Of a stretch of DNA of 64,000 nucleotides, positions 1,540 through 53,056 are shown piece by piece. A model generated the notes under the pieces. That model did no database searches. It was not told the origin of the DNA and saw only the letters and a list, made by a program, of their open reading frames with translations. This stretch comes from Haliotis rufescens. Taxonomy: Eukaryota. A program made the position numbers and the translations under genes. Each line of letters starts with the position of its first letter. The stretch's first letter is position 1. The stretch covers positions 48,670,001 through 48,734,000 of the forward strand of contig NW_025964383.1 in the NCBI RefSeq assembly GCF_023055435.1, read 5' to 3'.

Positions 1540-2556
1540 GTAAGAGCGTACCTTGTTAGTACTTTAGTATCTGCATAACGCGTACCATGTTAGTACTTGA
1601 GTGTCTGAATAACATTGATGGTGAGTTCATGAGTTGCGTTAATACAGCTTTCAGCAGATTTTTAGTATCAGATTAATGTGATTTAAGTCCAAACTGTCGT
1701 TGCTCTGATATATGTCAGAGTGGTCGCCATGAAAGCCAGTAGAATATATAGATTCAAGGTTAATAGTGATGAATTAGAACCTGCGGCAACGTCAAAGTGA
1801 GGCAACTCTGCACTGCATCAACCATGTTTAAGTGAGTCGAGTTTTAACCCAATTTACAATAGTTTATCAGTTGTGTTACATGAATACCGATGGTTTCATG
1901 TGGGAGATTAGACACAAAGATATTGTTTGTTTCTTATATTGAGTGAGAACAGATTCGGTAAGGCATATACAAGTACGTTTTCGGTAACAATCAAGTAGCC
2001 TGCCTACAAACTATTGGTAACCACTCACAACTGGAGTCTTGTGCTGTGACGTGTATGTCCTGGAGATGCAAGGTCTGTAGAATGACGGCAAACTATCGGC
2101 AATTGTCCTAGTTACTTATCATTACAGGACGTTGTTTGTTAGGCTCATCCCATACGTGTTCAGTCTGGCTCAAAGCTGGATTGAAATGCTCAGCATAGAT
2201 CATTCTCTATATCACGACGCTTATGAATTCTCTGCGTGAATGTAGCTGTGCAGGGAATAGGTGCTATCTTGCTGAAAGGCGTATCATTAGTGAAGAGCAC
2301 CGCATACCATTTTGATGCATTCTGATGTCCTGATGCTTGGACCACCCAACGGATATGTCTCGTCAGCTTATTTTGTCATTTCCAACAATCGTCATCGACT
2401 GATGTTGTCACCAGTTGTGATGTCGCATTGTCCACTGTCTGATTGGACACCAAAGAAAATTAAATTAGAAATGTTTACTTCTATAGCACTTTGGTGTATT
2501 CATATGGTTTAATTTGATGAAACTGTATATATTCATGTTCTTGTTTGATTCGACAG

Positions 2557-4028
2557 ATCCGTGTAATCTGAAATGGGTGCAAGTATTACACACAGACCAA
2601 AACGGTGGTGTCATTTCAGGAAGGAAAAGAGACCTACAACAGAGCGTTCTCCATGGGCGAAGAATAAGATTTGTTTTGAATAATACATACCACAATACAG
2701 CTGAGTTCGATTCGTGCACAAAGGTCGATGCAGATGCTTGCTGTCAGTCTATGCCACATGTCTCTGTCTATAACGAAGATGACTTCGATCCATCCGGGTC
2801 CTGGTCGTTAATGATTGTGTGTTCCACAGGGCATATACAGATGAAAACCTATTTCGTTGGTGGCAAGGCTAAATCTGATAAAACCATAAAATCCGCAATA
2901 ATTTGGTTTGCATTGCAAAAGGAAAAAACACAATATCCATCACCAGTTTATGCAAGTGGATACAAAGGAAATGTTTCTGTTAAGTACATAGACGCGCTTG
3001 CTACACATATTCTTCAAGGGTCTTCTGTTGCTATTTCCTGCATTAGTAACATATTTTATACTGCAAACTGCGAGGTGCTACCGAGAAAACATCCTAAATC
3101 AAGAGAAATCAGTTGCGAGGCTATTTGGGTCGTTGGTCAACATCAATACGGTAATCATAACATATTTATGAAAAATGCATACTGGTATTTTCTAATTCTA
3201 ACGTCTTTAGATTCATTTTACCAAAGTAGATGGTATATTGGGAATAACAAGTTTAGGACCAGCAACCGTAGCCATTTTAAAATGAAATGGTTTGTCGATG
3301 ATTGTTGGACCACGCTGCATGTCTCTGAGAGAAATGGATCTCTTAGTAACACATTGATGCATTTAAATTTCTTTGCTGACTGTGGACATTCTGTCAAAGT
3401 AAAATTTGATAACACAATAATGGAGGCAGAAGGTATCCGAATCTCAGGTGATCACCTGTCAGTGTTTTTGATATCATCCTTGTCCAAAAGAAATGCAGAG
3501 TACTTTAGAGAGGATCTAAACTGGGAGTTCAGGGTCGTGAGTACTACAGGAACTATTAGGACATATCGTCCTCTTGTGGGGGCATCGAACGTCACTCATA
3601 AGACAGCTACAATAGAGAGGAAGCCAATAACCTGGTTTGTGGATACAAAGAAGTGGGACCTTGTGTTGCACACTCTAAGGAATACTTCAGTTGTGAGCGG
3701 TTCGATCCTGGCAGTGAGATATGCCATAGCTCATGGTGCAGAAATCAGAATAGCTTTCCGATTTTCTAACGACTCCGGATTTCGCATCTATAAAGCACAT
3801 AACATTCACCTTGGACCCGAGCATCACGTTACAGCACAGGTTGTACGTGCTCTGAAAGAATACGAAGTAGGGAATGAGAACTTTCGACTTGATGATAATC
3901 CATGTTGGTATTTCAAACTAATATCTACCAAAGGGTATGTTGTTAGCACTGAATGGACCCTGAAAGGTGTGATAAATCACGGTCAAAGGTCGGATAAAGC
4001 AGAGATAAAGTGGTTTGCAAACCTTTAA
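2557..4028 (+). CDS. Uncharacterised protein with four ~120-aa internal repeats, copy 1 (main exon; ORF track 2514-4028)
   Basis: Long ORF intact in all three copies. Acceptor ttcttgtttgattcgacag|AT at 2556/2557. Repeating motif WxxVLHT..G..ISG...L...I..G..IR...W.F..vS.tG...I.WF. Confidence 0.85.
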
Positions 4029-5819
4029 AAAAAGATGACTTACACTCCCTGTTATTCATGCGTATACTTCTATGTATTCTTAAATCAGTGTAGGACACTT
4101 CCATGTTCTGGTTGACAGCCTCTGCCAGGAGAACGGAACATCGATCGTTCTACCCCCTTGCTGTGTCATACCAAAAGATGGTACACTGTCTGCCATTAAC
4201 GACTTAGACATGTTAATGGATGTATCATCAAATTGATATATTTGTAGCAAAGGTTTGACAAGTGAGGTCAAAATAAGATCAGCCACTGATGCCGCCGTCA
4301 AAAGGAGAAACTGATAAGTTACCTATTTGTTTGGGTGAAATTTATGCTGCTTTTTGCAGTATTCCAGTATTATCAAGACGGGAAACACCACGAAACGGTT
4401 CTTTATAATATGATGTATAGGGATGTCAAACTCAAGTCGCCTGTGTGACGAACATAGATAGCGAGACCTTAATTAGTGTAAGAAAGCTGCTCACAAGTAA
4501 CTAACAGCAGTTTGTTAACGATACTGGAAGACTGTATTTTTTTATATGTCAAATTATAAAGGTGCGGAAAACTATCAGGCATGTGCAAATGACTGGCAAT
4601 TAGCCTTTTTCTTTTATGACACGTGAGAATTTGAGAATTCTGACATGGATACATATATCGATATGGCTTCAATGTGAGAACATGGCAGATTGTTTTAACT
4701 TCAAGTGAGCATCTAAGACGTGGTCATGCTCATATACTAGGAAAAGGCTTAAAAAAAAAACAAAGTCGAATACGGCGCCTTATTTGCTTTAAAGAGTTGC
4801 TTAATCTTGTATGTTGTACCGTTTGTATGCATGTCTTTCAGTTTGTAATAAACTTATTGTTGTTCTAAACTTGTGTTTGCTGTTCCATATTTGTTTTTTT
4901 TGTAGAGTTAAGAGAATATGAGCTAAACTGATATATATATATGTTTTCTTCATTGGCAAGTCCATCTTGTATGGTCGACCCAAATGTAAAGGTAAAGTAA
5001 AGTGGAATCAGTCGTAAATGACGAGTAAAATCTTACATCACCCGGTTCAAATGACGTTAAACTTAACACTTCAAGACTTTTATTTGAAACGGTGGTCAAA
5101 TGTCATTTGACTATATCATGATATGGCTGTCCCATTTTAAAAAATGAAATTAATAACATACTTCATCAGCGTTGGGAAACCTTTGCGAACGATTTCGAGG
5201 CATTTGCAACTGATATCTCTAAATGATTTAAGAGGAGAAAAAATTGGTGCGAAATCTGTATTTTACGATGATGTGGTTTGAACACATTCATATGTTGCAT
5301 CTCATTCATATATTGCATTTTAAGGCATACGTTCCATACGTTCCTGTGGATATAAACACTGTAATGAAATGTGAAACATGATTGTACAGAAAGTGCGTAT
5401 ACCAGCTACATATGCTTTCCATGCCTGGTGGTGGGTGTGCATGTCAAGCCTGTTAGTGTTCGTGGATTAAACAGACCAATCATGAAGTCATGTCCAATCA
5501 AACTATCTGTCCAGCTTACGCCTGTGTTTAAGAAACGACAATAAGAGTATTATTTCGTCACAAAAGAGTGTGTTTTGAAATTCCTGAACATGTAAAATCT
5601 TTTGTTGGAAAGATAATTTACGGCAACATATATCTCTCGGTTTCACAGAGATAATCTAAACTGTAAGCCATGCATGAGGCAGCTTCCTAACTGGAAACTA
5701 TGGGCCCCTAACATTTTACATTGGAATATCATTTCCGTTGGCATATCAAATGTCGACACGCTAATTCAGGTAACTTTACACTGTGTTCTCAACCTTCTTC
5801 AAATGCAAGTTAACGCAGA

Positions 5820-6771
5820 GAGACGAAGTCACTGCCCGGAGAGGTGAGACGGAGTGAGGGTGAGGGGTAGAGGTCACAGGGGAAGACGAAGCCACTGCCC
5901 CGAGAGGTGAGACGATTTGAGGGTGAGGGGTAGAGGTCAGAGGAGCAGTTAAAGTAACTGCCCGGAGAGGTGAGACGGGGTGAGGGTGAGGGGTAGAGGT
6001 CAGAGGAGCAGTTAAAGTCACTGCCCGGAGAGGTGAGACGGGGTGAGGATGAGGGGTAGAGGTCAGAGGAGCAGTTAAAGTCACTGCCCGGAGAGGAGAG
6101 ACGGGATGAGGATGAGGGGTAGAGGTCAGAGGAGCAGTTAAAGTCACTGCCCGGAGAGGTGAGACGGGGTGAGGGTGAGGGGTAGAGGTCACAGTGGAAG
6201 ACGAAGTCACTGCCCCGAGAGGTGAGACGGGGTGAGGGTGAGGGGTAGAGGTCACAGGGGAAGACGAAGTCACTGCCCCGAGAGGTGATACGGCGTGTGG
6301 GTGAGGGGAAGAGGTCACAGGGGAAGACGAAGTCACTGACCGGAGAGGTGAGACGGGGTGAGGGTGAGGGGTAGAGGTCACAGGGGAAGACGAAGTCACT
6401 GCCCCAAGAGGTGAGACGGGTTGTGGGTGAGGGGTAGAGGTCACAGGGGAAGACGAAGTCACTGCTCCGAGAGGTGAGACGGGGTGTGGGTGAGGGGTAG
6501 AGGTCACAGGGGAAGACGAAGTCACTCCCTGGAGAGGTGAGACGGGGTGTGGGTGAGGGGTAGAGGTCACAGGGGAAGACGAAGTCACTGCCCCAAGAGG
6601 TGAGACGGGGTGAGGGCGAGGGGTAGAGGTCACAGGGGAAGACGAAGTCACTCCCTGGAGAGGTGAGACGGGGTGTGGGTGAGGGGTAGAGGTCACAGGG
6701 GAAGACGAAGTCACTGACCGGAGAGGTGAGACGGGGTGAGGGTGAGGGGTAGAGGTCACAGGGGAAGACAA
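5820..6771. repeat. 63-bp G-rich minisatellite, ~15 units
   Basis: Unit gtcactgccccgagaggtgagacggggtgagggtgaggggtagaggtcacaggggaagacgaa. Confidence 0.95.
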
Positions 6772-8539
6772 GGTCTAATCAACTAGCAGCCGAGTCCGAG
6801 TTGGTTGTTGACGTCAGGTTTGTAATGGCAAATCTAGTGATTGGAGTCCTTATACTCCAGAGGGCTGTGTTTTTACACACCCGTGGGTGAGAAACCCGTT
6901 TGAGATAACTGGTATCAAACAGATGCGTGAGATCGATTTCCAGGCCCGTGATTGGCTATTCCATGGTGATGACCTGAGGTCAGATTATGACGGAGTACTT
7001 TCCTGATTGTAAGTTATTGCCCGTGCTTCATTCGAATGTTATGTGGAATATTGCCGAGGGAAAGTGTAGCAAAGCAAACAAACATATCACCAAACATATA
7101 TTGAGTTATTGCAAGTGTTTACTGTAGTGGGATGAAACTTGTTACATAACCTCTTGTGTCCTGATAGTGATACGGTTTTGAGTGACCTTCATTGTAGGTC
7201 AAGGCCACGTGAAAAAAAGGTAATTCGTAATTAGTTCAACATAAATGTTCAAAACACACAGTTGACATATAACTCTCCAAATTCAGTCCGTTGTAGGGTT
7301 GATGGGTTGTAGCAAAAGCTACATTTCTCCAACAAATTTGATCAATTAACATTCTTCTATTGACTTTTCATGTGTTCTTCTTATTAGTAAGTTACCAATA
7401 ACCCCCAGTAAATAATACGAATACGAAATAAATGCCTCTTGGAAGTGGCAGAACTTGACCTACATACAAAGTCAACTCACAACTTTCAAAGGCTGCCAAC
7501 CTTGTTGTTTACACTCTCCATGCCTCTGACGAAGCAACATGACAACCCCGATCTATGCTGTTGATCAACATTCACCTATGTAGATAAACTGTGGATGAGC
7601 CTGCTGGTACAACGTGATTGACAATAGAACTACACAGAGCATGACTGATCATGAACGATCAGGTTGCATTTTGGCATGAGGGTTTTAAAATCTATATCAA
7701 CGAAATTCGACGCCAGTACGTGAATAAAATGTGACAGTTGTGGCCTGACATAGTGCTTCGTGTATATTTTCCGTAAGTGTGCGTGTTCTGAAAAGCTGGT
7801 GTGACCAAGTGCCTGTGCTGTGACTTCAGTGATGTTGGGACATTTGTGAGTGGCCTTTCAAAGGGGGGAGTGTTTACCGATGGTCTTTCAAATACTCTCT
7901 TGACAAATCGTGAAGGTGGTGGTTGAGTAAAGGAACATTGTACTATACGACGCTCTTGTAAAATAGACAGTGCCTTGTACCAGTGCACATGAGCAATCGG
8001 AACCGGAACCGGAACCGGATAAAATTATAAACACGCCAGTGTTTCAACCTGTTCAATACTTAATTAGTTATTGTCATTTCACGCTGATTCTCTCAAGTAA
8101 AGTGAGCAAACAAATAGAAATCGGTTCTTATTAAAAGTCGTAGCCAAACAAACCCACATCAAACGTACCGTATTTTCTCTATTCATACACTTGGTCGTCT
8201 ATTAATTTCACGAAAGCTGTTGACCCAGCTTGTATTACAAACCTTTCTTGCATTTGAGACCCATCGTCTAATATATTGATAGGATATACAATTCTTTTGT
8301 TGATGGACAGCCTTTGTTTATTGGTCTATATGTAGGGTGTCGAGGTATTCATATACACGTTTTTGTGTGTAAAAAGGGCTTAATATGTTTTAAAGAGGTT
8401 TCTGTTGCAAAACGGAGACCTCTTTTTAACCAATCAGAATAAAGCATTCTTCAATGTCATGGCAGAATTACAAATAACCAAGCTTGAAATTGGCTGAACG
8501 TCAATGTCATTGAACCGGAAGTGCAAATATCTTCCTCAC

Positions 8540-8768
8540 TAATAGATCTTCAGCAACCTATGCTTTCCGTAAAAGATGACTGGGCGAATAACGAGATCCT
8601 GTGGTCAGGCTCGCTGACTTGGTTGGTGTATGTCATCGTATCCCAATTACGTTGATCGATGTTCATGATGTAAATCACTCGATTATCTCGTACATACCCG
8701 ATTATTAACAGACCGCCGCCATATAACTGGAATATTGCTGAGTGCGGTTTTAAAACAACAAACAAACA
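8540..8768 (+). mobile_element. Interspersed SINE-like repeat, family B (5'-truncated)
   Basis: Shares ggtcaggctcgctgacttggtt...cagaccgccgccatata.ctggaatattgctgagtgcgg and a (caaa)n tail with copies at 19575, 31003, 34925, 47007 and 60915. Confidence 0.8.
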
Positions 8769-10200
8769 GTAATTACTTAATAATGTACTCAGACGCATTG
8801 GACTCTCTCTCTCTTAGAGCTGTACTGCCTTTGGCATGCGCTTCATTAATTAGAAAAACATATACCAGTAATTAGGCTGGAAGTGATGCCTTCAGGTTCC
8901 TGATAATGTTACCTGGAGGCAAACTTTCTGGTATGCCATCAAACTACAGGCAACTTCAGTCGGCATTCTCGGGCGAGCCACAATTGCAATGTCCTCTTCG
9001 TTAGACTGGGATCGGTGCCTCATGAATCTAGGTGCGACCGTTTGGGGAACATTCCTGGCAATTTCTCGCTCCCTCAGTTCACCGTTGACGACGAGTGCTG
9101 GGCAAGCAGGTCATTGCAGAAGCTCACTTGACTATATGTTAGGTGAGCTATAACATGGCTTCGCAAATTACCTTATAGCGATGATCGGAGTAGTCTGATA
9201 TTAATAAATAAAAGACAGTAAAGTGCCAACATGGAAAAACATGAACTTTGATATTTCGAGATATAAATTCAATACACTGGTTTTCTTTTGTGTTCATTCT
9301 CTGTGAACATTGTCAAGACATTTGAAATCACTCATTGATTTATGAGCAGAAACATTCGGCGCAAAAGCTGTATTCCTCACAACAATGTTGTGATATATTC
9401 TTGAATGTTAGTCTGCATGATTGCCCACTTTAGGGTGAAATAAATATATGCACATAACAAATTCTAGCATCTCGATCATATGTTGCGCAATTAAAGCATG
9501 CATTCCTTGGAACATAAAAAACAGAATGATCTATAAGACATGATTTTTCAGAAGGTGCACCTGCCAATATTGAAAACGAGTTAGTAACATTTACAAAAAG
9601 CTCTGTCAAAATGTTTAATTTGCAGGAATTGGTATTCTATGCAAGATGTAAAAGTATTTGATCCATTTGCTTTGTTTCTACTTGCTCTCTTTCTGTTAAT
9701 TAGTGTTCTGAAGATGACTGAATAACCAAATTGAGGGTGACATATTACCATGTACAGATGCATCCAGCAGAAGCAATCATGAACGGTGGAAATTCCAATA
9801 TCAGAAAGTTCAAGACTTTCATCATGTGCTCTTACTGTGTGCTGTTTTCAGACAAGAAGCAGCAAAAACAGCTTAAGTAAAAACATGCTTCTATTCAAAC
9901 CTATAACACAAACGCTTCCTGAAAACCTTCAACTCTAATGCTTTGACACACTTTAAAGACACGTCTTCAAAGCAGCTGTTATCAAAAGTCAAGTCATCAC
10001 TCATGCGAAATGATGATATCTGTTCAATGACTAATTCCAGAAAAATATTCGGCAAGGCAAGATTTTTCTCCTAACCTAATAATGTCACCGTATACGGCAA
10101 CTAAAGACACCATAAAGTTCAATATTAGGTGCGAACTCGTTAAAGAGGATTAAACACACAACTTGCAGGGTTGGATTTGTGATAATATGACTTTGTAATA

Positions 10201-10946
10201 TACACAACAACAAAAGTTCCTGTGACTCCAATTTTTTAGTGTATTTTTCAAACAAGTAAAGTTTGGGTTTCAATATTGTAGCACATGTATGGAATCAAGT
10301 CACATAAACGCAACTGCTACAGAAAAGCATGCATTACATGCAAAAGTTGACTTTTATGCAAGCCCCATGCATTTCACTACCCAAGAATGTGTATAAAAAC
10401 ATGTGCGTTAACAGGATTCCATATGCATTGTTTAGCATCGTGCTGACAACAACCACTCAGGAAAACGACAAAATTACGCAATTATTTAACATTACGAAAT
10501 GCCACGCCCTTCAGAAAATGAGCGTCTGAGAGCCTTTGGTATGCTTGAAGCAGGATCAGTCAACGTGATGTTGCAAGACACAAAAACACCATTTGGTGTT
10601 TATGGCAACGTTGGCAACAGTCGAATGCAGTCAGAGACCATCCTCGCAGTGGCAGGCCGTGCGTAACCAATTATCGACAAGACAACTGGATTCGAACAAC
10701 ACACCTACGAAATCGATTCCAGCCAGCAACAGTGACTGCAAGAAGCATCCCTGGCCTTCGACGAATATCTTCACAAACCGTACGCAAATATCACGCATTT
10801 TCGGAAATCAGAATGGCAAATTAAACAATTTGAACACTTACAGGCGTCTTTTATCTGTTGCAAACCAAAATTGTTTCAGATTTGGTAAAAAACGTAACTT
10901 TGCATTTAATCTTATTCAATGTCACAGGAACTTTTGTTGTTCAGTA
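10201..10946 (+). mobile_element. Internally deleted Tc1 element with both TIRs and a frameshifted transposase N-terminus
   Basis: Left TIR TA|TACACAACAACAAAAGTTCCTGTGAC; right TIR reverse complement TACTGAACAACAAAAGTTCCTGTGAC. From ATG 10499 it reads MPRPSENERLRAFGMLEAG../RDHPRSGRP../HLRNRFQPATVTARSIPGLRRISSQTVR (Tc1 HTH region). Confidence 0.85.
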
Positions 10947-11681
10947 TTTATTGTACTGCCATGCAACGATGACCTGTTGAGAAACCAGACAATCAAGGAT
11001 GAGGATTGTTTTCAACTTGGATGTAAATAATTGAAAAGATGCCAAAAGTCGCCAGGCAACTGGATGCACTTGCTGGAGATGGCATTCCGTCTCACATAAA
11101 GATAAAGGGCAATTGATGAAATTCTAGGAATAGCCTTCAGAATGTCCACTTTTTATCGCCTACTTCTTTATTGTTTATAACTCTATTTCAGGAGAACCAA
11201 TTACGATTAACAACGTTTAGAAAGAACACGGTTATCACGAACTGACGGATATACCGAATTTATCTTTGTTGTCCCGAACATTTGCTGTATGAGAGGTTTT
11301 AATGCTTATAACGAACTACGGTTATAAGGAACTAAAATGAGTGGTCCCTTTGAGTTAGTTATTACCATCGTTTGCTGTACTGGGAGATTTGGCTTGGGTA
11401 GTCCTCTGTGTGTGTCCTCTGTCTTTTTTCATTCAGAACAATCCAACACTTTGGTATTATGTTTTCCTAATTGCACTCAATAATAATGTCTGAATTTCAC
11501 ACATGGCACTGGTTACGGCACTGTCTCCTCTGTATGGTGCAGGCGTTCAGTTTAGCTCTAGAGATGTCATATGTGTCTTGTGATACTTTGTGGTTCTCAT
11601 TACATTTGTGATATGTTTTCAACACAACCACAAAAAATTACTAAAAGTGAATCGCTAAATCACAAAATCCTCTTGGTAAGA

Positions 11682-11850
11682 GTGAGTGAATGAGTGAGTA
11701 CGGTTTAATACCGCTTTTATTATTATTCTAGCGATATCACGGCGGGGGGACACCAGAAATGCGGTTTACACATTGTACCCATGTCGGAAATCGAACCTGG
11801 GTCTTCGGCGTGACGAGCGAAAACTTTAACTTCTAGATTACCCTACTGCC
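11682..11850 (-). mobile_element. tRNA-derived SINE, family A
   Basis: B-box ggttcgatttcc on the minus strand, (actc)n tail, near-perfect TSD cctcttggtaaga / cctctttgtaaga. Confidence 0.85.
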
Positions 11851-12451
11851 CCTCTTTGTAAGACCGAATGACATGAAAAGAGAATGTTACATATGATTGA
11901 GTGTGATTCATAATTTAATTATATTTAATAGTTATCCATAAAGGCTGTATTCGGATCTATTCCAAAGAATTTTAGCATTTTATTCTGTGTAAAAGAACTA
12001 TACATTTTCGACGTATCTGACATGGGAGCTCCGTCTTGTAGTACTATTTCTCTAGTGTGTGTATGCTTTTATGTGTTTGTGTAAGCGTTTGGTGTTTGTG
12101 TCTCGAATTGCTAGATAAGTATACCTAAAAATGTGAGTTGACAGACAAAGGATTTAAATGCAATTGTTTGGAATGCCAGACTAGATTGGCCCTAGACTAC
12201 TCTCCCTGTTTGTACGCCAACTCCATCTGCTTGAGGCTGATTGATTGTTTTCTTCTGCTGTCAAGTCATGTGCCGCCGTCGGAATTCTGATAGTTTGAAT
12301 GTATCATGTTCTCTATGTGATTGAATATTCAGTTATGCTTATACGTGTACACCTCTAACTGGTTGAGGTGGTATTCATTCTGAATCATCGTTATCAGAGG
12401 CATCATTTATACGTCGGACATATATGAACACGTTCATGTGGCACAGCAAGG

Positions 12452-12605
12452 ATGGACCTGCATACTTTCATATTACTTTCCACTCATCTGAGTCAAAGCT
12501 GTATGCTTAAAGAATTGGAACCGACGGGCTGCGGACATGTCAGGATTAAAAACGGAATTTCTCATTTCAACATGCATACTCCATATTTGAAGAAGATAAA
12601 TCGGG
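12452..12605 (+). CDS. Probable upstream coding exon, four-repeat gene copy 2
   Basis: Paralogue of 1386-1539; open, with a phase-1 GTAAG donor. Confidence 0.55.
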
Positions 12606-13635
12606 GTAAGAGCGTACCTTGTTAGTACTTTAGTATCTGCATAACGCGTACCATGTTAGTACTTGAGTGTCTGAATAACATTGATGGTGAGTTCATGAGT
12701 TGCGTTAATACAGCTTTCAGCAGATTTTTAGTATCAGATTAATGTGAGATTAAAGTCCAAACAGACGTTGCCCTTATATATGTCAGAGTGGTCGCCATGA
12801 AAGCCAGTAGAATATGAATAATAATTCCAAGGTTAATAATGAGGAATTAGAACCTGCGGACACGTCAAAGTGAGGCATCTCTGCACTGCATCAACCATGT
12901 TTAAGTGAGTCAAGTTTTAACGCTATTTACAATAGTTTATCAGTTGTGTTACATGAATACCGACGGTTACACGTGGGAGTATAGACACAAATATATTGTT
13001 TTTATCTTATATTCAGTGAGAACAGATTCGGTAAGGCATATATAAGTACGTTTTCGGTAACAATCAAGTAGCCTGCCTACAAATTATTGGTAACCACTCA
13101 CAACTGGAGTCTTGTGCTGTGACGTGTATACCCTTGAGATGCAAGGTCTGTAGAATGACGCCAAACTATCGTCAATTGTTCTGGTTACTTATCATTACAG
13201 GACGTTGTTTGTTAGGCATATTGGGGCATGTGTTCAGTCTGGCTCAAATTTGAATTGGAAAGCTGAGCATAGATCATTCTCTATATTACGACGCCTATGG
13301 ATGCTCTGCGTGAATGTAGCTGTACAGGGAATGGGTGCTATCTTGCTGAAAGGCGTATCGTTAGTGAAGAGCACCGCACCGCATACAATTTGGATGCATT
13401 TTGATATCCTGATGCTTGGACCACCCCATGGATATATCTCGTCAGCTTATTTTGTCATTTCTAATAATCGTCATCGACTGATGTTGACACCAGTTGTGAT
13501 GTCGCATTGTCCACTGTCTGATTGGACACCAAAGAAAGTTAAATTAGAAATTTGTACTTCTATAAGACTTTGATGTATTTATAAGGTTTCATTTGATGAA
13601 ACTGTATATATTCATGTTCTTGTTTAATTCGACAG

Positions 13636-15107
13636 ATCCGTGTAAACTGAAATGGGTGCAAGTATTACACACAGACCAAAACGGTGGTGTCATTTCAGGA
13701 AGGAAAAGAGACCTACAAAAGAGCGTTCTCCATGGGCGAAGAATCAGATTTGTTTTGAATAATACATACCACAATTCAGCTGAGTTCGATATGTGCAGAA
13801 AGGTCGATGCAGATGCTTGCTGTCAGTCTATGCCACATGTCTCTGTCCATAACGAAGATGACTTCGATCCATCCGGGTCCTGGTCGTTTATGATGGTGTG
13901 TTCCACAGGGCATATACAGATGAAAACCTATTTCGTTGGTGGCAAGGCTAAATCTGATAAAACCATAAAAACCGCAATAATGTGGTTTGCATTGCAAAAG
14001 GATAAAATACGATATCCATCACCAGTTTTTGCAGGTGGGTACAAAGGAAATGTTTCTGTTAAGAACATAGACGCGCTTGCTACACATATTCTTCAAGGGT
14101 CTTCTGTTGCTATTTCCTGCATTAGTAACATATTTTATACTGCAAACTGCGAAGTGCTACCGAGAAAACATCCTAAATCAAGAGAAATCAGTTGCGAGGC
14201 TATTTGGGTCGTTGGTCAACATCAATACGGTAATCATAACATATTTATGAAAAATGCATACTGGTATTTTCTAATTCTAACGTCTTTAGATTCATTTTAC
14301 CAAAGTAGATGGTATATTGGGAATAACAAGTTTAGGACCAGCAACCGTAGCCATTTTAAAATGAAATGGTTTGTCGATGATTGTTGGACCACGCTGCATG
14401 TCTCTGAGAGAAATGGATCTCTTAGTAACACATTGATGCATTTAAATTTCTTTGCTGACTGTGGACATTCCGTCAAAGTAAAATTTGATAACACAATAAT
14501 GGAGGCAGAAGGTATCCGAATCTCAGGTGATCACCTGTCAGTGTTTTTGATATCATCCTTGTCCAAAAGAAATGCAGAGTACTTTAGAGAGGATCTAAAC
14601 TGGGAGTTCAGGGTCGTGAGTACTACAGGAACTATTAGGACATATCGTCCTCTTGTGGGGGCATCGAACGTCACTCATAAGACAGCTACAATAGAGAGGA
14701 AGCCAATAACCTGGTTTGTGGATACAAAGAAGTGGGACCTTGTGTTGCACACTCTAAGGAATACTTCAGTTGTGAGCGGTTCGATCCTGGCAGTGAGATA
14801 TGCCATAGCTCATGGTGCAGAAATCAGAATAGCTTTCCGATTTTCTAACGACTCCGGATTTCGCATCTATAAAGCACACAACATTCACCTTGGACCCGAG
14901 CATCACGTTACAGCACAGGTTGTACGTGCTCTGAAAGAATACGAAGTAGGGAATGAGAACTTTCGACTTGATGATAATCCATGTTGGTATTTCAAACTAA
15001 TATCTACCAAAGGGTATGTTGTTAGCACTGAATGGACCCTGAAAGGTGTGATAAATCACGGTCAAAGGTCGGATAAAGCAGAGATAAAGTGGTTTGCAAA
15101 CCTTTAA
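13636..15107 (+). CDS. Uncharacterised four-repeat protein, copy 2 (chimeric; ORF track 13593-15107)
   Basis: Intact ORF with acceptor at 13635/13636. The N-terminal third matches copy 3 and the remainder matches copy 1. Confidence 0.85.
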
Positions 15108-16825
15108 AAAAAGGACACTTCCATGTTCTGGTTGACAGCCTCTGCCAGGAGAACGGAACATCGATCGTTCTACCCCCTTGCTGTGTCATACCAAAAGATG
15201 GTACACTGTCTGCCATTAACGACTTAGACATGTTAATGGATGTATCAACAAACTGATATATTTGTAGCAAAGGTTTGACAAGTGAGGTCAAAATAAGATC
15301 AGCCACTGATGCCGCCGTCAAAAGGAGAAACTGATAAGTTACCTATTTGTTTGGGTGAAATTTATGCTGCTTTTTGCAGTATTCCAGTTTTATCAAGACG
15401 GGAAACACCACGAAAGGGTTCTTTATAATATGATGTTTAGGGATGTCAAACTCAAGTCGCCTGTGTGACGAACATAGATAGCGAGACCTTAATTAGTGTA
15501 AGAAAGCTGCTCACAAGTAACTAACAGCAGTTTGTTAACGATACTGGAAGACTGTATTTTTTTATATGTCAAATTATAAAGGTGCGGAAAACTATCAGGC
15601 ATGTGCAAATGACTGGCAATTAGCCTTTTTCTTTTATGACACGTGAGAATTTGAGAATTCTGACATGGATACATATATCGATATGGCTTCAATGTGAGAA
15701 AATGGCAGATTGTTTTAACTTCAAGTGAGCATCTAAGACGTGGTCATGCTCATATATTAGGAAAAGGCTTAAAAAAAAAAAACCAAAGTCGAATACGGCG
15801 CCTTATTTGCTTTAAAGAGTTGCTTAATCTTGTATGTTGTACCGTTTGTATGCATGTCTTTCAGTTTGTAATAAACTTATTGTTGTTCTAAACTTGTGTT
15901 TGCTGTTCCATATTTGTTTTTTTTGTAGAGTTAAGAGAATATGAGCTAAACTGATATATATATGTTTTCTTCATTGGCAAGTCCATCTTGTATGGTCGAC
16001 CCAAATGTAAAGGTAAAGTAAAGTGGAATCAGTCGTAAATGACGAGTAAAATCTTACATCACCCGGTTCAAATGACGTTAAACTTTTATTTGAAACGGTG
16101 GTCAAATGTCATTTGACTATATCATGATATGGCTGTCCCATTTTAAAAAATGAAATTAATAACATACTTCATCAGCGTTGGGAAACCTTTGCGAACGATT
16201 TCGAGGCATTTGCAACTGATATCTCTAAATGATTTAAGAGGAGAAAAAATTGGTGCGAAATCTGTATTTTACGATGATGTGGTTTGAACACATTCATATG
16301 TTGCATCCCATTCATATATTGCATTTTAAGGCATACGTTCCATACGTTCCTGTGGATATAAACACTGTAATGAAATGTGAAACATGATTGTACAGAAAGT
16401 GCGTATACCAGCTACATATGCTTTCATTGCCTGGTGGTGGGTGTGCATGTCAAGCCTGTTAGTGTTCGTGGATTAAACAGACCAATCATGAAGTCATGTC
16501 CAATCAAACTTTCTGTCCAGTTTACGCCTGTGTTTAAGAAACGACAATAAGAGTATTATTTCGTCACAAAAGAGTGTGTTTTGAAATTCCTGAACATGTA
16601 AAATCTTTTGTTGGAAAGATAATTTACGGCAACATATATCTCTCGGTTTCACAGAGATAATCTAAACTGTAAGCCATGCATGAGGCAGCTTCCTAACTGG
16701 AAACTATGGGCCCCTAACATTTTACATTGGAATATCATTTCCGTTGGCATATCAAATGTCGACACGCTAATTCAGGTAACTTTACACTGTGTTCTCAACC
16801 TTCTTCAAATGCAAGTTAACGCAGA

Positions 16826-17713
16826 GAGACGAAGTCACTGCCCGGAGAGGTGAGACGGAGTGAGGGTGAGGGGTAGAGGTCACAGGGGAAGACGAAGCCA
16901 CTGCCCCGAGAGGTGAGACGATTTGAGGGTGAGGGGTAGAGGTCAGAGGAGCAGTTAAAGTAACTGCCCGGAGAGGTGAGACGGGGTGAGGGTGAGGGGT
17001 AGAGGTCAGAGGAGCAGTTAAAGTCACTGCCCGGAGAGGTGAGACGGGGTGAGGATGAGGGGTAGAGGTCAGAGGAGCAGTTAAAGTCACTGCCCGGAGA
17101 GGTGAGACGGGGTGAGGGTGAGGGGTAGAGGTCACAGTGGAAGACGAAGTCACTGCCCCGAGAGGTGAGACGGGGTGAGGGTGAGGGGTAGAGGTCACAG
17201 GGAAAGACGAAGTCACTGCCCCGAGAGGTGATACGGCGTGTGGGTGAGGGGAAGAGTCACAGGGGAAGACGAAGTCACTGCCCCAAGAGGTGAGACGGGG
17301 TGAGGGTGAGGGGTAGAGGTCACAGGGGAAGACGAAGTCACTGCCCCAAGAGGTGAGACGGGTTGTGGGTGAGGGGTAGAGGTCACAGGGGAAGACGAAG
17401 TCACTGCCCCGAGAGGTGAGACGGGGTGTGGGTGAGGGGTAGAGGTCACAGGGGAAGACGAAGTCACTGACCGGAGAGGTGAGACGGGGTGAGGGTGAGG
17501 GGTAGAGGTCACAGGGGAAGACGAAGTCACTGACCGGAGAGGTGAGACGGGGTGAGGGTGAGGGGTAGAGGTCACAGGGGAAGACGAAGTCACTCCCTGG
17601 AGAGGTGAGACGGGGTGAGGGCGAGGGGTAGAGGTCACAGGGGAAGACGAAGTCACTGACCGGAGAGGTGAGACGGGGTGAGGGTGAGGGGTAGAGGTCC
17701 CAGGGGAAGACAA
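16826..17713. repeat. 63-bp G-rich minisatellite, ~14 units
   Basis: Same unit as 5820-6771; one unit has a 1-bp deletion near 17255. Confidence 0.95.
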
Positions 17714-19574
17714 GGTCTAATCAACTAGCAGCCGAGTCCGAGTTGGTTGTTGACGTCAGGTTTGTAATGGCAAATCTAGTGATTGGAGTCCTTATACTCC
17801 AGAGGGCTGTGTTTTTACACACCCGTGGGTGAGAAACCCGTTTGAGATAACTGGTATCAAACAGATGCGTGAGATCGATTTCCAGGCCCGTGATTGGCTA
17901 TTCCATGGTGATGACCTGAGGTCAGATTATAACGGAGTACTTTCCTGATTGTAAGTTATTGCCCGTGCTTCATTCGAATGTTATGTGGAATATTGCCGAG
18001 GGAAAGTGTAGCAAAGCAAACAAACATATCACCAAACATATATTGAGTTATTGCAAGTGTTTACTGTAGTGGGATGAAACTTGTTACATAACCTCTTGTG
18101 TCCTGATAGTGATACGGTTTTGAGTGACCTTCATTGTAGGTCAAGGCCACGTGAAAAAAAGGTAATTCGTAATTAGTTCAACATAAATGTTCAAAACACA
18201 CAGTTGACATATAACTCTCCAAATTCAGTCCAATAATATATGTTTTAATTTTATTGCAAACCAGTTGTGCCCTATTTGGACTCACCTAGCCATTTCACCG
18301 AAACCAGCGAGACAAACAGAAATGCCCCTTCCCGTTGTAGGGTTGATGGGTTGTAGCAAAAGCTACATTTCTCCAACAAATTTTATCAATTAACATTCTT
18401 CTATTGACTTTTCATGTGTTCTTCTTATTAGTAAGTTACCAATAACCCCCAGTAAATAATACGAATACGAAATAAATGCCTCTTGGAAGTGGCAGAAATT
18501 GACCTACATACAAAGTCAACTCACAACTTTCAAAGGCTGCCGACCTTGTTGTTTACACTCTCCATGCCTCTGACGAAGCAACATGACAACCCCGATCTAT
18601 GCTGTTGATCAACATTCACCTATGTAGATAAACTGTGGATGAGCCTGCTGGTACAACGTGATTGACAATAGAACTACACAGAGCATGACTGATCATGAAC
18701 GACCAGGTTGCATTTTGGCATGAGGGTTTTAAAATCTATATCAACGAAATTCGACGCCAGTACGTGAATAAAATGTGACAGTTGTGGCCTGACACAGTGG
18801 TTCGTGTATATTTTCCGTAATTGTGCGTGTTCTGAAAAGCTGGTGTGACCAAATGCCTGTGCTGTGACTTCAGTGATGTTGGGACATTTGTGAGTGGCCT
18901 TTCAAAGGGGGGAGTGTTTACCGATGGTCTTTCAAATACTCTCTTGACAAATCGTGAAGGTGGTGGTTGAGTAAGGGAACATTGTACTATACGACGCTCT
19001 TGTAAAATAGACAGTCCCTTGTACCAGTGCACATGAGCAATCGGAACCGGAACCGGAACCGGATATAATTATAAACACGCCAGTGTTTCAACCTGTTCAA
19101 TACTTAATTAGTTATTGTCATTTCACGCTGATTCTCTCAAGTAAAGTGATCAAACAAATAGAAATCGGTTCTTATTAAAAGTCGCAGCCAAACAAACCCA
19201 CATCAAACGTACCGTATTCATACACTTGGTCGTCTATTAATTTCACGAAAGCTGTTGACCCAGCTTGTATTACAAACCTTTCTTGCATTTGAGACCCATC
19301 GTCTAATATATTGATAGGATATACAATTCTTTTGTTGATCGACAGCCTTTGTTTATGGGTCTATATGTAGGGTGTCGAGGTATTCATATGCACGTTTTTT
19401 TGTGTAAAAAAGGCTTAATATGTTTTAAAGAGGTTTCTGTTGCAAAACGGAGACCTCTTTTTAACCAATCAGAATCAAGCATTCTTCAATGTCATGGCAG
19501 AATTACAAATAACCAACCTTGAAATTGGCTGAACGTCAATGTCATTGAACCGGAAGTGCAAATATCTTCCTCAA

Positions 19575-19803
19575 TAATAGATCTTCAGCAACCAATGCTT
19601 TCTGTAAAAGATGACTGGGCGAATAACGAGATCCTGTGGTCAGGCTCGCTGACTTGGTTGGTGTATGTCATCGTATCCCAATTACGTTGATCGATGTTCA
19701 TGATGTAAATCACTCGATTATCTCGTACAGACCCGATTATTAACAGACCGCCGCCATATAACTGGAATATTGCTGAGTGCGGTTTTAAAACAACAAACAA
19801 ACA
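19575..19803 (+). mobile_element. SINE-like repeat family B (array paralogue of 8540-8768)
   Basis: Near-identical to 8540-8768. Confidence 0.8.
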
Positions 19804-21258
19804 GCAATTACTCAATAATGTACTCAGACGCATTGGACTCTCTCTCTCTTAGAGCTGTACTGCCTTTGGCATGCGCTTCAATAATTAGAAAAACATATAC
19901 CAGTAATTAGGCTGGAAGTGATGCCTTCAGGTTCCTGATAATGTTACCTGGAGGCAAACTTTCTGGTATGCCATCAAACTACAGGCAACTTCAGTCTGCA
20001 TTCTCGGGCGAGCCACAATTGCAATGTCCTCTTCGTAAGACTGGGATCGGAGCCTCTTGAACCTAGGTGCGACCGTTTGAGGAACATTCCTGGCAATTTC
20101 TCGCTCCCTCAGTTCAGCGTTGACGACGAGTGCTGGGCAAGCAGGTCATGGCAGAAGCTCACTTGACTATCTGTTAGGTGAGCTATGACATGGCTTCGCA
20201 AATTATCTTATAGCGATGATCGATGATCGGAGTAGTCTGATATAAATAAATAAAATACAGGATGGTTTGAAGCGTGTAAAGTGCCAACATGGAAAAACAT
20301 GAACTTTGATATTTCGAGATATAAATTCAAGACACTGGTTTTCTTTTGTGTTCATTCTCTGTGAACATTGTCAAGACATTTGAAATCACTCATTGATTTA
20401 TGAGCAGAAACATTCGGCACAAAAACTGTATTCCTTACGACAATGTGGTGGTATATTCTGGAATGTTAGTCTGCATGATTGCCCACTTTAGGGTGACATA
20501 AATATATGCACATAACAAATTCTAGCATCTCGATCATATGTTGCGCTATTAAAGGATGCATTCCTTGGAACATAAAAAACAGAATGATCTATAAGACATG
20601 ATTTTTCAGAAGGTGCGCCTGCCAATATTGAAAACGAGTTAGTAACATTTACAAAATGTTCTGTCAAAATGTTTAATTTGCAGGAATTGGTATTCTATGC
20701 AAGATGTAAAAGTATTTGATCCATTTGCTTTGTTTCTACTTGCTCTCTTTCTGTTAATTAGTGTTCTGAAGATGATTGAATAACCAAATTGAGGGTGACA
20801 TATGACCATGTACAGATGCATCCAGCAGAAGCAATCATGAACGGTGGAAATTCCAATATCAGAAAGTTCAAGACTTTCATCATGTGCTCATATTGTGTGC
20901 TGTTTTCAGACAAGAAGCAGCAAAAACAGCTTAAGTAAAAACATGCTTCTATCCAAACCTATAAGACAAACGCTTCCTGAAAACCTTCAACTCTAATGCT
21001 TTGACACACTTGAGAGACACGTCTTCATAGCAGCTGTTATCAAAAGTCCAGTCATCACTCATGCGAAATGATGAAATCTATACATTGACTAATTCTAGAA
21101 AAATATTCGGCAAGGCAAGATTTTTCTCCTAACCTAAAAATGTCACCGTATACGGCAACTAAAGACACCATAAAGTTCAATATTAGGTGCGAACTCGTTA
21201 AAAAGGATTAATCACACAACTTGCAGGGTTGGATTTGTGATAATATGACTTTGTAATA

Positions 21259-22003
21259 TACACAACAACAAAAGTTCCTGTGACACCAATATTTTAGTGT
21301 ATTTTTCAAACAAGTAAAGTTTGGTTTTCAATATTGTAGCACATGTATGGAATCAAGTCACATAAACGCAACTGCTACAGAAAAGCATGCTTTCCATGCA
21401 AAAGTTGACTTTTATGCAATCCCCATGCATTTCACTACCCAAGAACGGGTATAAAACATGTGCGTTAACAGGATTCCATATGCATTGTTTAGCATCGTGC
21501 TGACAACAACCACTCAGAAAGACGACAAAATTACGCAATTATTTAACATTACGAAATGCCACGCCCATCAGAAAATGAGCGTCTGCGAGCCTTTGGTATG
21601 CTTGAAGCAGGATCAGTCAACGTGATGTTGCAAGACACAGAAACACCATCTGGTGTTTATGGCAACGTTGGCAACAGTCGAATGCAGTCAGAGACCATCC
21701 TCGCAGTGGCAGGCCACGCATAACCAATAATCGACAAGACAAGTGGATTCGAACAACACACCTACGAAATCGATTCCAGCCAGCAACAGTGACTGCAAGA
21801 AGCATCCCTGGCCTTCGACGAATATCTTCACAAACCGTACGCAAAAATCACGCATTTTCGGAAGTCAGTATGGCAAATTAAACAATTTGAACACTTACAG
21901 GAGTCTTTTATCTGTTGCAAACCAAAATTGTTTCAGATTTGGTAAAAAAAATAACTTGGCATTAAATCTTTTTCAATGTCACAGGAACTTTTGTTATTCA
22001 GTA
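21259..22003 (+). mobile_element. Internally deleted Tc1 element (paralogue of 10201-10946)
   Basis: Both TIRs are flanked by TA; transposase N-terminal remnant from ATG 21556. Confidence 0.85.
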
Positions 22004-22715
22004 TATATTGTACTGCCATGCAACGATGACCTGTTAAGAAACCAGACAATCAAGGATGAGGATTGTTTTCAACTTGGATGTCAATAATTGAAAAGATGCC
22101 AAAAGTCGCCAGGCAACTGGATGCACTTGCTGGAGATGGCATTCCGTCTCACATAAAGATAAAGGGCAATTGATGAAATTCCAGGAATAGCCTTCAGATT
22201 GTCCACTTTTTATCGACTACTTCTTTATTGTTTGTAACTCTGTTTCAGGAGAACCAATTATGATTAACAACGTTTAGAAAGAACACGGTTATAACGAACT
22301 GACGGATATACCGAATTTATCTTTGTTGTCCCGAACATTTGCTGTATGAGAGGTGTATATGCTTATAACGAACTACGGTTATAAGGAACTAAAATGAGTG
22401 GTCCTTTTGAGTTAGTTATTACCGTCATTTGCTGTACTGGGAGATTTGGCTTGGGTAGTCCTCTGTGTGTGTCCTCTGTCTATTTTCATTCAGAACAATC
22501 CAACACTTAGGTATTATGTTTTCCTACTTGCACTCACTAATGTCTTAATTTTACACATGGCACTGGTTACGGCACTGTCTCCTCTGTATGGCGCAGATGT
22601 CATATGTGTCTTGTGATACTTTGTGGTTCTCATTACATTTTGTGATATGGTTTGAACACAATCACATGAAATTACTAAACGTGAATCGCTAAATCACAAA
22701 ATCCTCTTGGTAAGA

Positions 22716-22884
22716 GTGAGTGAATGAGTGAGTACGGTTTAATTCCGCTTTTATTATTATTCCAGCAATATCACGGCGGGGGTACACCAGAAATGCGGTT
22801 TACACATTGTACCCATGTCGGAAATCGAACCTGGGTCTTCGGCGTGACGAGCAAAAACTTTAACTTCTAGGTTACCCTACTGCC
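22716..22884 (-). mobile_element. tRNA-derived SINE, family A
   Basis: Perfect 13-bp TSD cctcttggtaaga at 22703-22715 and 22885-22897; B box and (actc)n tail present. Confidence 0.9.
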
Positions 22885-23506
22885 CCTCTTGGTAAGACCG
22901 AATAACATGAAAAGAGAATGTTACATATGATTGAGTATGATTCATAATTTAATCATATTTGATAGTTATCCATGAAGGCTGTATACGGATCTATTCCAAA
23001 GAATTTTAGCATTTTACTCTGTGTAAAAGAACTATACATTTTCGTCGTATCTGACATGGGAGCTCCGCCATGTAGTACTATTTCTCTTGTGTGTGTATGC
23101 TTTTATGTGTTTGTGTAAGCGTTTGGGTGTTTGTGTAATTAAACTCGTCTCGAATTGCTAGATTAGTATACCTAAAAATGTGAGTTGACAGACAAAGGGT
23201 TTGTAGGATTCGAATGCAATTGTTTGGAATGCCAGACTAGATTGGCCCTAGACTACTCTCCCTGTTTGTACGCCAACTCCATCTGCTTGAGGCTGATTGA
23301 TTGTTTTCTTCTGCTGTCAAGTCATGTGCCGCCGTCGGAAATCTGATAGTTTGAATGTATCATGTTCTCTATGTGATTGAATATTCAGTTTTGCTTATAC
23401 GTGTACACCTCTAATTGGTGAGGTGGTATTCATTCTGAATCATCGTTATCAGAGGCATCATTTATACGTCGGACATATATGAACACGTTCATGTGGCACA
23501 GCAAGG

Positions 23507-23660
23507 ATGGACCTGCATACTTTCATATTACTTTCCACTCATCTGAGTCAAAGCTGTATGCTTAAAGAATTGGAACCGACGGACTGCGGACATGTCAGGG
23601 TTAAAAACGGAATTTCTCATTTCAACATGCATACTCCATATTTGAAGAAGATAAATCGGG
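23507..23660 (+). CDS. Probable upstream coding exon, four-repeat gene copy 3
   Basis: Paralogue of 1386-1539; open, with a phase-1 GTAAG donor at 23661. Confidence 0.55.
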
Positions 23661-24698
23661 GTAAGAGCGTACCTTGTTAGTACTTTAGCATCTGCATAAC
23701 GCGTACCATGTTAGTACTTGAGTGTCTGAATAACATCGATGGTGAGTTCGTGAGTTGCGTTAATACAGCTTTCAGCAGATTTTTAGTATCAGATTAATGT
23801 CAGATGAAAGTCCAAACTGACGTTGCCCTTATATATGTCAGAGTGGTCGCCATGAAAGCCAGTAGAATATGAATAATAATTCCAAGGTTAATAATGAGGA
23901 ATTAGAACCTGCGGACACGTCAAAGTGAGGCAACTCTGCACTGCATCAATCATGTTTAAGTGAGTCGAGTTTTAACGCCATTTACAATAGTTTATCAGTT
24001 GTGTTACATGAATACCGACGGTTACACGTGGGAGTATAGACAAAAATATATTGTTTTTATCTTATATTCAGTGAGAACAGATTCGGTAAGGCATATACAA
24101 GTACGTTTTCGGTAACAATCAAGTAGCCTGCCTACAAACTATTGGTAACCACTCACAACTGGAGTCTTGTGCTGTGACGTGTATGTCCTGGAGATGCAAG
24201 GTCTGTAGAATGACGCCAAACTATCGGCAATTGTTCTGGTTACTTATCATTACAGGATGTTGTTTGTTAGGCATATTGGGGCTCACCCACACGTGTTCAG
24301 TCTGGCTCAAATTTGGATTGAAATGCTGAGCATAGATCATTCTCTATATTACGACGCTTATGGATGCTCTGCGTGAATGTAGCTGTACAGGGAATGGGTG
24401 TTATCTTGCTGAAAGGCGTATCGTTAGTGAAGAGCGCCGCACCGCATACAATTTGGATGCATTTTGATATCCTGATGCTTGGACCACCCCATGGATATAT
24501 CTCGTCAGCTTATTTTGTCATTTCTAATAATCGTCATCGACTGATGTTGACACCAGTTGTGATGTCGCATTGTCCACTGTCTGATTGGACACCAAAGAAA
24601 GTTAAATTAGAAATTTGTACTTCTATAGCACTTTGGTGTATTTATAAGGTTTCATTTGATGAAACTGTATATATTCATGTTCTTGTTTAATTCGACAG

Positions 24699-26170
24699 AT
24701 CCGTGTAAACTGAAATGGGTGCAAGTATTACACACAGACCAAAACGGTGGTGTCATTTCAGGAAGGAAAAGAGACCTACAAAAGAGCGTTCTCCATGGGC
24801 GAAGAATCAGATTTGTTTTGAATAATACTTACCACAATTCAGCTGAGTTCGATATGTGCAGAAAGGTCGATACAGATGCTTGCTGTCAGTCTATGCCACA
24901 TGTCTCTGTCCATAACGAAGATGACTTCGATCCATCCGGGTCCTGGTCGTTTATGATGGTGTGTTCCACAGGGCATATACAGATGAAAACATATTTCGTT
25001 GGTGGCAAGGCTAAATCTGATAAAACCATAAAAACCGCAATAATGTGGTTTGCATTGCAAAAGGATAAAATACGATATCCATCACCAGTTTTTGCAAGTG
25101 GATACAAAGGAAATGTTTCTGTCAAGAACACAGACGCGCTTGCTACAAATATTCTTCAAGGGTCTTCTATTGCTATTTTCTGCATTAGTAGCATATTTTA
25201 TACTGCCAACTGCGAGGTGCTACCGAGAAAACATCCTAAACCAAGAGAAATCAGTTGCGAGGCTATTTGGGTCGTTAGTGACTATCAATACGGTAATCAT
25301 TACATATTTAAGAACAATGCATACTGGTATTTTCTAATTCTAACGTCTTTAGATTCATATTACCAAAGTAGATGGTATATTGGGAATAACAGGTTGATCT
25401 TCCACAACCGTAAGCATTTTAAAATGAAATGGTTTGTCGATGACTGTTGGACCACGCTGCATGTCTCTGAGAGAAATGGATCTCTTAGTAACACATTGAT
25501 GCATTTAAAATTTTTTGCTGACTGTGGACATTCCGTCAAAGTTAAATTTGATAACACAATAATGGAGGCAGAAGGTATCCGAAGCTCAGGTGATCACCTG
25601 TCAGTGTTTTTGGTATCATCCTTGTCCAAAAGAAATGCAGAGTACTTTAGAGAGGATCTAAACTGGGAGTTCAGGGTCGTGAGTACTACAGGAACTATTA
25701 GGACATATCGTCCTCTTGTGGGGGCATCGAACGTCACTCATAAGACAGCTACAATAGAGAGGAAGCCAATAACCTGGTTTGTGGATACAAAGAAGTGGGA
25801 CCTTGTGTTGCACACTCTAAGGAATACTTCAGTTGTGAGCGGTTCGATCTTGGCAGTGAGATATGCCATAGCTCATGGTGCAGAAATCAGAATAGCTTTC
25901 CGATTTTCTAACGACTCCGGATTTCGCATCTATAAAGCACACAACATTCACCTTGGACCCGAGCATCACGTTACAGCACAGGTTGTACGTGCTCTGAAAG
26001 AATACGAAGTAGGGAATGAGAACTTTCGACTTGATGATAATCCATGTTGGTATTTCAAACTAATATCTACCAAAGGGTATGTTGTTAGCACTGAATGGGC
26101 CCTGAAAGGTGTGATCAATCACGGTCAAAGGTCGGATAAAGCAGAGATAAAGTGGTTTGCAAACCTTTAA
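24699..26170 (+). CDS. Uncharacterised four-repeat protein, copy 3 (ORF track 24656-26170)
   Basis: Intact ORF with acceptor at 24698/24699; divergent segments in repeat 2. Confidence 0.85.
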
Positions 26171-27959: not shown

Positions 27960-28275
27960 AGAGACGAAGTCACCTCCCGGTGAGGTGAGGCGGGATGAGG
28001 ATGAGGGGTAGAGGTCACGGGGAAAGACGAAGTCACTGCCCGGAGAGGTGAGACGGGGTGAGGGTGAGGGGTAGAGGTCACGGGGAACGACGAAGTCACT
28101 GCCCGGAGAGGTGAGACGGGGTGAGGGTGAGGGGTAGAGGTCACGGGGAACGACGAAGTCACTGCCCGGAGAGGTGATACGGGATGAGGGTGAGGGGTAG
28201 AGGTCACAGGGGAAGACGAAGTCACTGCCCAGAGAGGTTAGACGGGCTGAGGATGAGGGGTAGAGGTCACAGGGG
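27960..28275. repeat. 63-bp G-rich minisatellite, ~5 units
   Basis: Same unit as in copies 1 and 2. Confidence 0.9.
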
Positions 28276-52679: not shown

Positions 52680-53056
52680 CCTGCAAGATACATAGTAAGT
52701 GATTAGTCTACGACTGCACACATTTAATAAAGTATAACACTCTGGGGCATAGCTAAGTGATTAAAGACAGGTTCCATTCCTCACATATGTACATTTGAAA
52801 TCCTTTTATTGGTTTCAATGCTTTGATATGGATGAAATATTGCTAACATTAGCAGCAGAAAAACGCCCTCAAAATCTAAATAGTTGTACATTTAGTTATG
52901 TAATTGTTATGTCACAAGTGTTATGTCACAATTGTTATGTATGTAGACATTATTTTGTTGGGGAACAACCATGATGATGTGTCATGATGACCCCCAAAGA
53001 TCCTGCACTTATTATCGTGCATTGTCTTGTATAAGTATGTGTCTTTCTCTATAAAG

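Follow-up and report, generated by a model that had tools for sequence, protein, structure and literature searches.

The three gene copies and their spacers

We identified three gap-free open reading frames of 513 codons (2487-4028, 13566-15107, and 24629-26170) in the window, that is, in the whole 64,000-nucleotide stretch of Haliotis rufescens DNA analysed here. Each frame contains a main coding exon on the forward strand that runs to the stop codon. The exon of copy 1 (type A) spans 2557-4028, behind an acceptor CAG that ends at 2556, and that of copy 3 (type B) spans 24699-26170, as placed by its open frame and by alignment. Copy 2, with its main exon at 13636-15107, combines a B-type repeat 1 and linker with A-type repeats 2-4, and differs from copy 1 at 16 residues and from copy 3 at 25. 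Copy 1 matches, over the part common to both, the NCBI model XP_046335394.2, which is named for H. rufescens. Judging from the sequence, the main exon of copy 2 likely begins at 13636, directly after the acceptor CAG, with the same join as in the NCBI model.

Within the 1.33-Gb genome assembly, these three loci are the only matches at ≥95% identity. More distant paralogues (≤42% identity) are present on contigs C445, C101, C600, C556, and C35. A 90% protein cluster with five members includes the copy 1 model and two H. cracherodii models. Paralogues with 42% identity form another array on C445 (14.77-14.96 Mb, loci L004-L008 and L010) and are likewise most divergent in their 5′ third. One member of this array has an in-frame TAG (L007), L008 and L010 are one copy split by a deletion, and informative sites switch partner over the length of the exon, in a weak pattern (4 versus 6 sites). 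The distant paralogue loci L011 (C600) and L012 (C556), which hold several copies each, are 97.6% identical over 3.1 kb and represent either a recent duplication or a retained haplotig.

A candidate upstream coding exon of copy 2 (12452-12605, forward strand, phase 1, GTAAGA donor) was placed from the NCBI model of copy 1 and is open in all three copies (1386-1539 and 23507-23660 in the other two). Short frames resembling signal-peptide exons lie at 503-569, 10929-10975, and 21986-22032, where homology among the three copies begins. The ATG and the GTAAAG donor of the copy 1 frame contrast with copies 2 and 3, where that ATG is missing and the donors are weaker. The candidate start at 503 in copy 1 (‘MFWKA...’), missing in copies 2 and 3, overlaps a repeat-derived stretch. 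In X18, a run guessed to be RNA, a loose contig end joins sequence upstream of copy 1 (~537-567) to the main exon; since this joint is a 3-base microhomology and not GT-AG, it defines no intron. At the other end of the gene, copy 2 lacks 59 bp directly 3′ of the stop codon (at 15111-15112) that copies 1 and 3 have, an absence that may change its 3′ untranslated region.

In the assembly, the array has the layout A-spacer-(B/A)-spacer-B. The spacer, of ~4.1 kb, lies 3′ of copies 1 and 2 (6810-10922 and, by genome search and flank alignment, 17752-21979) and is found neither 5′ of copy 1 nor 3′ of copy 3. Searched against the genome assembly, a 1.9-kb piece of it matches in full at two places, both inside the window. 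The spacer also holds an interspersed repeat of ~600 bp (10200-10785), with at least 38 copies at ~92% identity elsewhere in the genome. Further along the window, two long minus-strand frames at 50268-52760 and 56802-60863 resemble ankyrin repeats by eye, the latter opening with 25 units of a 20-residue repeat. A cysteine-rich minus-strand frame at 33060-34103 resembles EGF-type repeats by eye and has no Pfam match.

The switch in copy 2

The preliminary description had proposed that copy 2 is a chimera of copies 3 and 1. We aligned the three copies across their upstream DNA, the exon, and the downstream DNA as far as the minisatellite, leaving out the minisatellite itself and the non-homologous ends. 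The 5,183 ungapped columns contain 275 informative sites. To the left of the best break, copies 2 and 3 agree at 120 of 145 such sites, and to the right copies 2 and 1 agree at 122 of 130 (Fisher p 9e-42; none of 5000 permutations reaches the statistic). The same switch is visible in the exon alone, where 17 of 21 sites on the left are copy-3-like and 34 of 36 on the right are copy-1-like. A single switch thus accounts for 242 of the 275 sites, which are not randomly interleaved. Copy 2 is a real hybrid gene, as had been proposed.

The DNA on either side agrees, again as first described. Upstream, a SINE-like interspersed repeat with tRNA-like A and B boxes (recognised by eye) is whole 5′ of copy 2 (11679-11847, minus strand) and of copy 3 (22713-22881) and is truncated 5′ of copy 1, where a gap of ~656 bp interrupts it; copies 2 and 3 have both the repeat and the adjoining ~656 bp. 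Downstream, the long 63-bp minisatellite 3′ of copy 2 (16827-17711), at 14.1 units by tandem-repeat count, is close to that of copy 1 (15.1 units, 5821-6769), versus 5.0 units 3′ of copy 3 (27962-28275). The residue motifs that had been listed as markers are all there. Those said to mark copy 3 are present, but two of them, ‘KN’ and ‘PVF’, are unreliable as markers since A-type alleles carry the copy 2 letters.

Allelic variation also bears on the position of the switch. With the assembly alone, the best breaks are at 14064/14068 (chi-square 161.7) and, tied with these, at 14029/14060 (161.0). At 14064, the letter of copy 2 is also present in an A-type short-read contig from run X7 (record 23), and an A-type contig from X18 (record 9) agrees with copy 2 at 14029, 14064, and 14153. 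A-type alleles with copy 2 letters at 14029 and 14064 shift the breakpoint 5′, to ~14030-14059. The switch had been placed at ~14058-14085, which is slightly too far 3′, although the switch itself is real. Reliable B-type sites end at 14011 and reliable A-type sites begin at 14060; alignment and short-read contigs together give outer bounds of 14012-14067. Most likely, the exchange point lies within 14030-14059, a 30-bp stretch that is identical between copies 1 and 3. Repeat 1 ends at ~13991 and repeat 2 starts at ~14013, so the crossover is near the boundary between them, as described earlier, in the first part of repeat 2, and the hybrid consists of B repeat 1 and the linker on A repeats 2-4. 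Two bases inside the switch interval, G14034 and G14039, are in neither neighbour, and the first of them changes Ser to Gly. These copy-2-only bases, 5 bp apart, could be crossover-associated mutations or variants of the donor alleles.

A few copy-3-like silent sites right of the break had been taken as a sign of additional, later gene conversion. We found 8 copy-1-private versus 7 copy-2-private sites right of the break (25 copy-3-private versus 37 copy-2-private sites on the left). Because the private sites are balanced, the pattern is as expected from two alleles, and later conversion is unneeded. The two exonic copy-3-like sites right of the break are 408 bp apart, and the C at one of them, silent site 14471, is also carried by A-type contigs from X5 and X7. 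The two H. cracherodii models, compared as proteins, are one A-like and one B-like, with agreement at 5 of 6 split sites. The two proteins have in common 8 residues that are absent from copies 1-3, which suggests from sequence that longer-term exchange between the A and B paralogues has probably occurred.

The junction in other samples and the origin of the hybrid

Two A-B haplotypes mis-joined within the exon would give the same layout as a crossover, so we examined contigs of other samples. Short-read contigs of four of 24 runs (X1, X5, X7, and X18) were placed on 13560-14500 only. A 171-bp contig from X1 (record 7, 14004-14174) spans the whole junction with a single differing letter (14153). 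It is B-type at 14008 and 14011, carries G14034 and G14039, and is A-type from 14060 to 14144. Because its diagnostic sites are at most 21 bp apart, they are phased by real 31-mers. In X7, which belongs to another study, G/G at 14034/14039 is found in 17.4 of 100.7 depth, on a path inferred from the depth table.

The junction thus exists in real DNA, beyond the assembly, which makes a plain mis-join unlikely. As X1 and X7 come from separate samples and studies, one or both must be independent of the assembly. The view that the junction is purely an assembly artefact, present in no animal, draws on the shared layout and on the observation that none of the NCBI models listed in the five-member cluster is a counterpart of copy 2. 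Against it, the junction was assembled independently in X1 and its markers recur in X7, at most one of which can be the assembly source, and A and B are identical over only 30 bases at the switch. The X1 and X7 contigs largely refute this view, which we consider highly improbable. In the assembly, the junction is linked to both spacers.

In X5, A/A at 14034/14039 accounts for 105.5 of 105.5 depth and no marked junction is seen. This does not amount to absence, as contigs drop paths (between 13828 and 14064, for example, X1 shows no A-type path) and the 30-bp identity prevents phasing of any hybrid that lacks G/G. Depths in X5 are 38.7 (B) and 12.5 (A) before that identity and 27.9 and 26.4 after it, a shift that may conceal either a hybrid lacking the marker bases or the loss of an allele from the contigs. 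The contigs of X18, at depth 3-5, are of A-type and B-type, none of them with G/G, and are uninformative on expression of the hybrid.

Contig depth, which is not copy number, gives a hint on the number of copies. In X7, the pure paths have depths of 46 (A), 17.4 (hybrid), and 37.3 (B), for which the small-integer fit A:hybrid:B of 3:1:2 ranks first and 2:1:2 fourth, so that the best fits make the hybrid the least abundant path. In X1, 2:1:3 fits best, and 1:1:2, with the hybrid replacing an A allele, is nearly as good. Contig depth favours an extra copy in X7 and is ambiguous in X1.

These depths bear on the possibility that the junction is real and lies on an A allele that received a long conversion tract from B, with two two-gene haplotypes falsely joined by the assembler. 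The 1:1:2 fit of X1 is compatible with such an allele, the difference of 2.0% between the duplicated units (below) is a plausible allelic level, and the near-identical C600 and C556 loci may be retained haplotigs. Such an allele predicts equal amounts of A and hybrid, however, and the 46 versus 17.4 of X7 places this fit outside the eight best (weak evidence, resting on contig depth); furthermore, no second switch is seen within the 2.7 kb upstream of copy 2. We regard this explanation as quite unlikely.

The duplicated DNA comprises two units of 11 kb, each with the 3′ part of A, the spacer, and the 5′ part of B (2988-14066 and 14067-25129, forward strand, aligned to each other). They are in register, with 222 substitutions in 10,904 columns (2.0%) and 19 indels. 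Divergence is uneven: it is 0.2-1.2% in the initial 3.5 kb and reaches 4.8% further on, a pattern that fits a single recent event only via allelic variation. Copies 2 and 3 differ by 2.9% upstream and copies 1 and 2 by 0.7% downstream. Both patterns, along with the 8 residues common to the H. cracherodii proteins as a sign that paralogue exchange happens, would also suit an older triplication whose first break lay elsewhere in the A/B homology, with later conversion or unequal exchange moving the boundary and homogenising the 3′ half of A. We think this history unlikely, given that one switch covers all but a remainder that private sites balance and that X5 contigs show no marked junction.

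Taken with the in-register units, the doubled spacer, the switch, the junction in other DNA, and the H. cracherodii pair, the origin first proposed holds up well: copy 2 probably arose by a single unequal crossover within the exon that turned an A-B pair into a three-gene A-(B/A)-B haplotype. In this event, B on one chromosome would have paired with A on the homologue, with the exchange at ~14030-14059. Most of the 2% difference between the 11-kb units would then reflect the distance between the parental haplotypes. Three-gene haplotypes would coexist with forms that lack the junction, and the three-gene haplotype is likely still segregating. The hybrid would encode an intact protein of four repeats, the first from B and the other three from A, under the upstream DNA of B.

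The event is of an ordinary, well-known kind. In anti-Lepore duplications of HBB/HBD, a hybrid fusion gene is flanked by its intact parents and one copy is gained (PMC4041002). Copy 2 likewise has its 5′ part from the downstream gene and its 3′ part from the upstream gene, and in the assembly the intergenic DNA is doubled, with both parents intact on either side. Unlike in the anti-Lepore case, the abalone crossover lies close to a repeat boundary within a single long exon, and the mollusc gene concerned is uncharacterised. Gene copy number is reported to vary commonly in Haliotis, both within species and from one species to another (PMC9936805, PMC12627906); the available text of these two studies treats neither this locus nor hybrid junctions.

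The encoded protein and its predicted fold

When copy 2 is searched with a repeat-4 profile, four repeats of ~120 residues are recovered, all on the forward strand. Repeat 1 (13650-13991) is matched by the profile at E 4e-20 and by the structure model, and profile and model also place repeat 2 (14013-14378) and repeat 3 (14382-14723). Repeat 4 (14727-15104) is predicted to have a VirK-like fold. AlphaFold2 models the chain with a pLDDT of 93.7 (95.0 for repeat 4). The predicted repeat 4 aligns with PDB 5XTA, the Legionella protein lpg1832/NttG of the bacterial VirK family, at Z 11.2 and rmsd 2.5 Å over 104 of 120 residues (next best Z 4.5), and Foldseek gives E 2.5e-4 and TM 0.57/0.59 for the same pair. 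Repeat 1 within the whole predicted model matches the 5XTA fold at Z 5.9.

Three reports (PMC6617341, PMC5700972, bioRxiv 2021.08.03.454866) present VirK as a secreted protein whose function is undefined. Although a predicted abalone repeat resembles lpg1832 in fold and domain size, VirK is a single secreted bacterial domain of ~120-145 residues, and the abalone chain has four domains and is encoded by an animal gene. Identity between the repeat and VirK is 12-14%, with no sequence-level match to Pfam or PDB. Pfam gave no match for the three proteins; for 69 homologues (E 0.01) and for four single repeats (E 10) it returned no VirK, and no family passed the cut-off. A profile search of PDB sequences returned one chance match with no VirK link. 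Foldseek with the whole four-repeat model yielded nothing usable, and a viral structure library yielded nothing at E 0.001. ESM Atlas had no usable match for copy 2 and, for homologue P0010, only unnamed clusters at ≤0.90. The comparison thus suggests a predicted fold shared with bacterial VirK, as distinct from family membership.

Homologues form ~146 clusters at E ≤0.001 (one of 147 is a false ankyrin match); a word-index protein search found one relative only. Those with names come from abalones, bivalves, and Lingula and are uncharacterised. Across 69 homologues no residue is invariant. Mollusc and Lingula proteins such as XP_046560186.1, XP_013396413.1, and XP_052820061.1 have the same four-repeat build, often in several near-identical copies, at ≤42% identity to the abalone copies. 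Homologues P0002, P0004, and P0010 have N-termini that resemble signal peptides by eye. In the literature outside subscription journals and supplements, no paper names LOC124117508 or six homologue identifiers, and none of the titles on VirK among the matches listed links VirK to an animal family.

The repeats differ in their rates of change. Synonymous divergence between A and B is ~4% in every repeat, and dN/dS is 1.05, 2.47, 0.29, and 0.09 in repeats 1-4. There are 41 nonsynonymous changes in 594 sites in repeats 1-2 versus four in 561 sites in repeats 3-4, and constraint on repeats 3-4 is significant (dN/dS 0.19, p 0.011). In no repeat is dN/dS significantly above 1 (repeat 2, 2.47, p 0.16). 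In a comparison of six close proteins, the most variable repeat, repeat 2, has changes at 40 of its 127 positions, versus four of 126 in repeat 4.

One tentative reading of these rates, of the signal-peptide-like N-termini, and of the lack of any invariant residue is that the protein is a secreted, non-enzymatic binding protein with its specificity in the first two VirK-fold repeats. Relaxed constraint may instead explain the variability of repeats 1-2. If the binding-protein reading holds, the crossover would add dose and a new pairing of repeat 1 with repeat 2. A broader and more doubtful reading is that an unnamed mollusc and brachiopod family consists of secreted proteins with four domains of the VirK fold, which until now has been described in bacteria, and that its abalone member is a diversifying recognition protein in which repeats 1-2 are positively selected and crossovers shuffle segregating specificities.

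The value of the locus is that of a checked example: a hybrid junction resolved to the base, whose two marker bases are accessible to short-read typing, at a place where abalone likely differ in copy number. The VirK-fold link is the fresher lead, and this side finding may matter more than the hybrid itself. An animal family with both fast and conserved repeats would give a handle on the partner-binding sites of the VirK fold.
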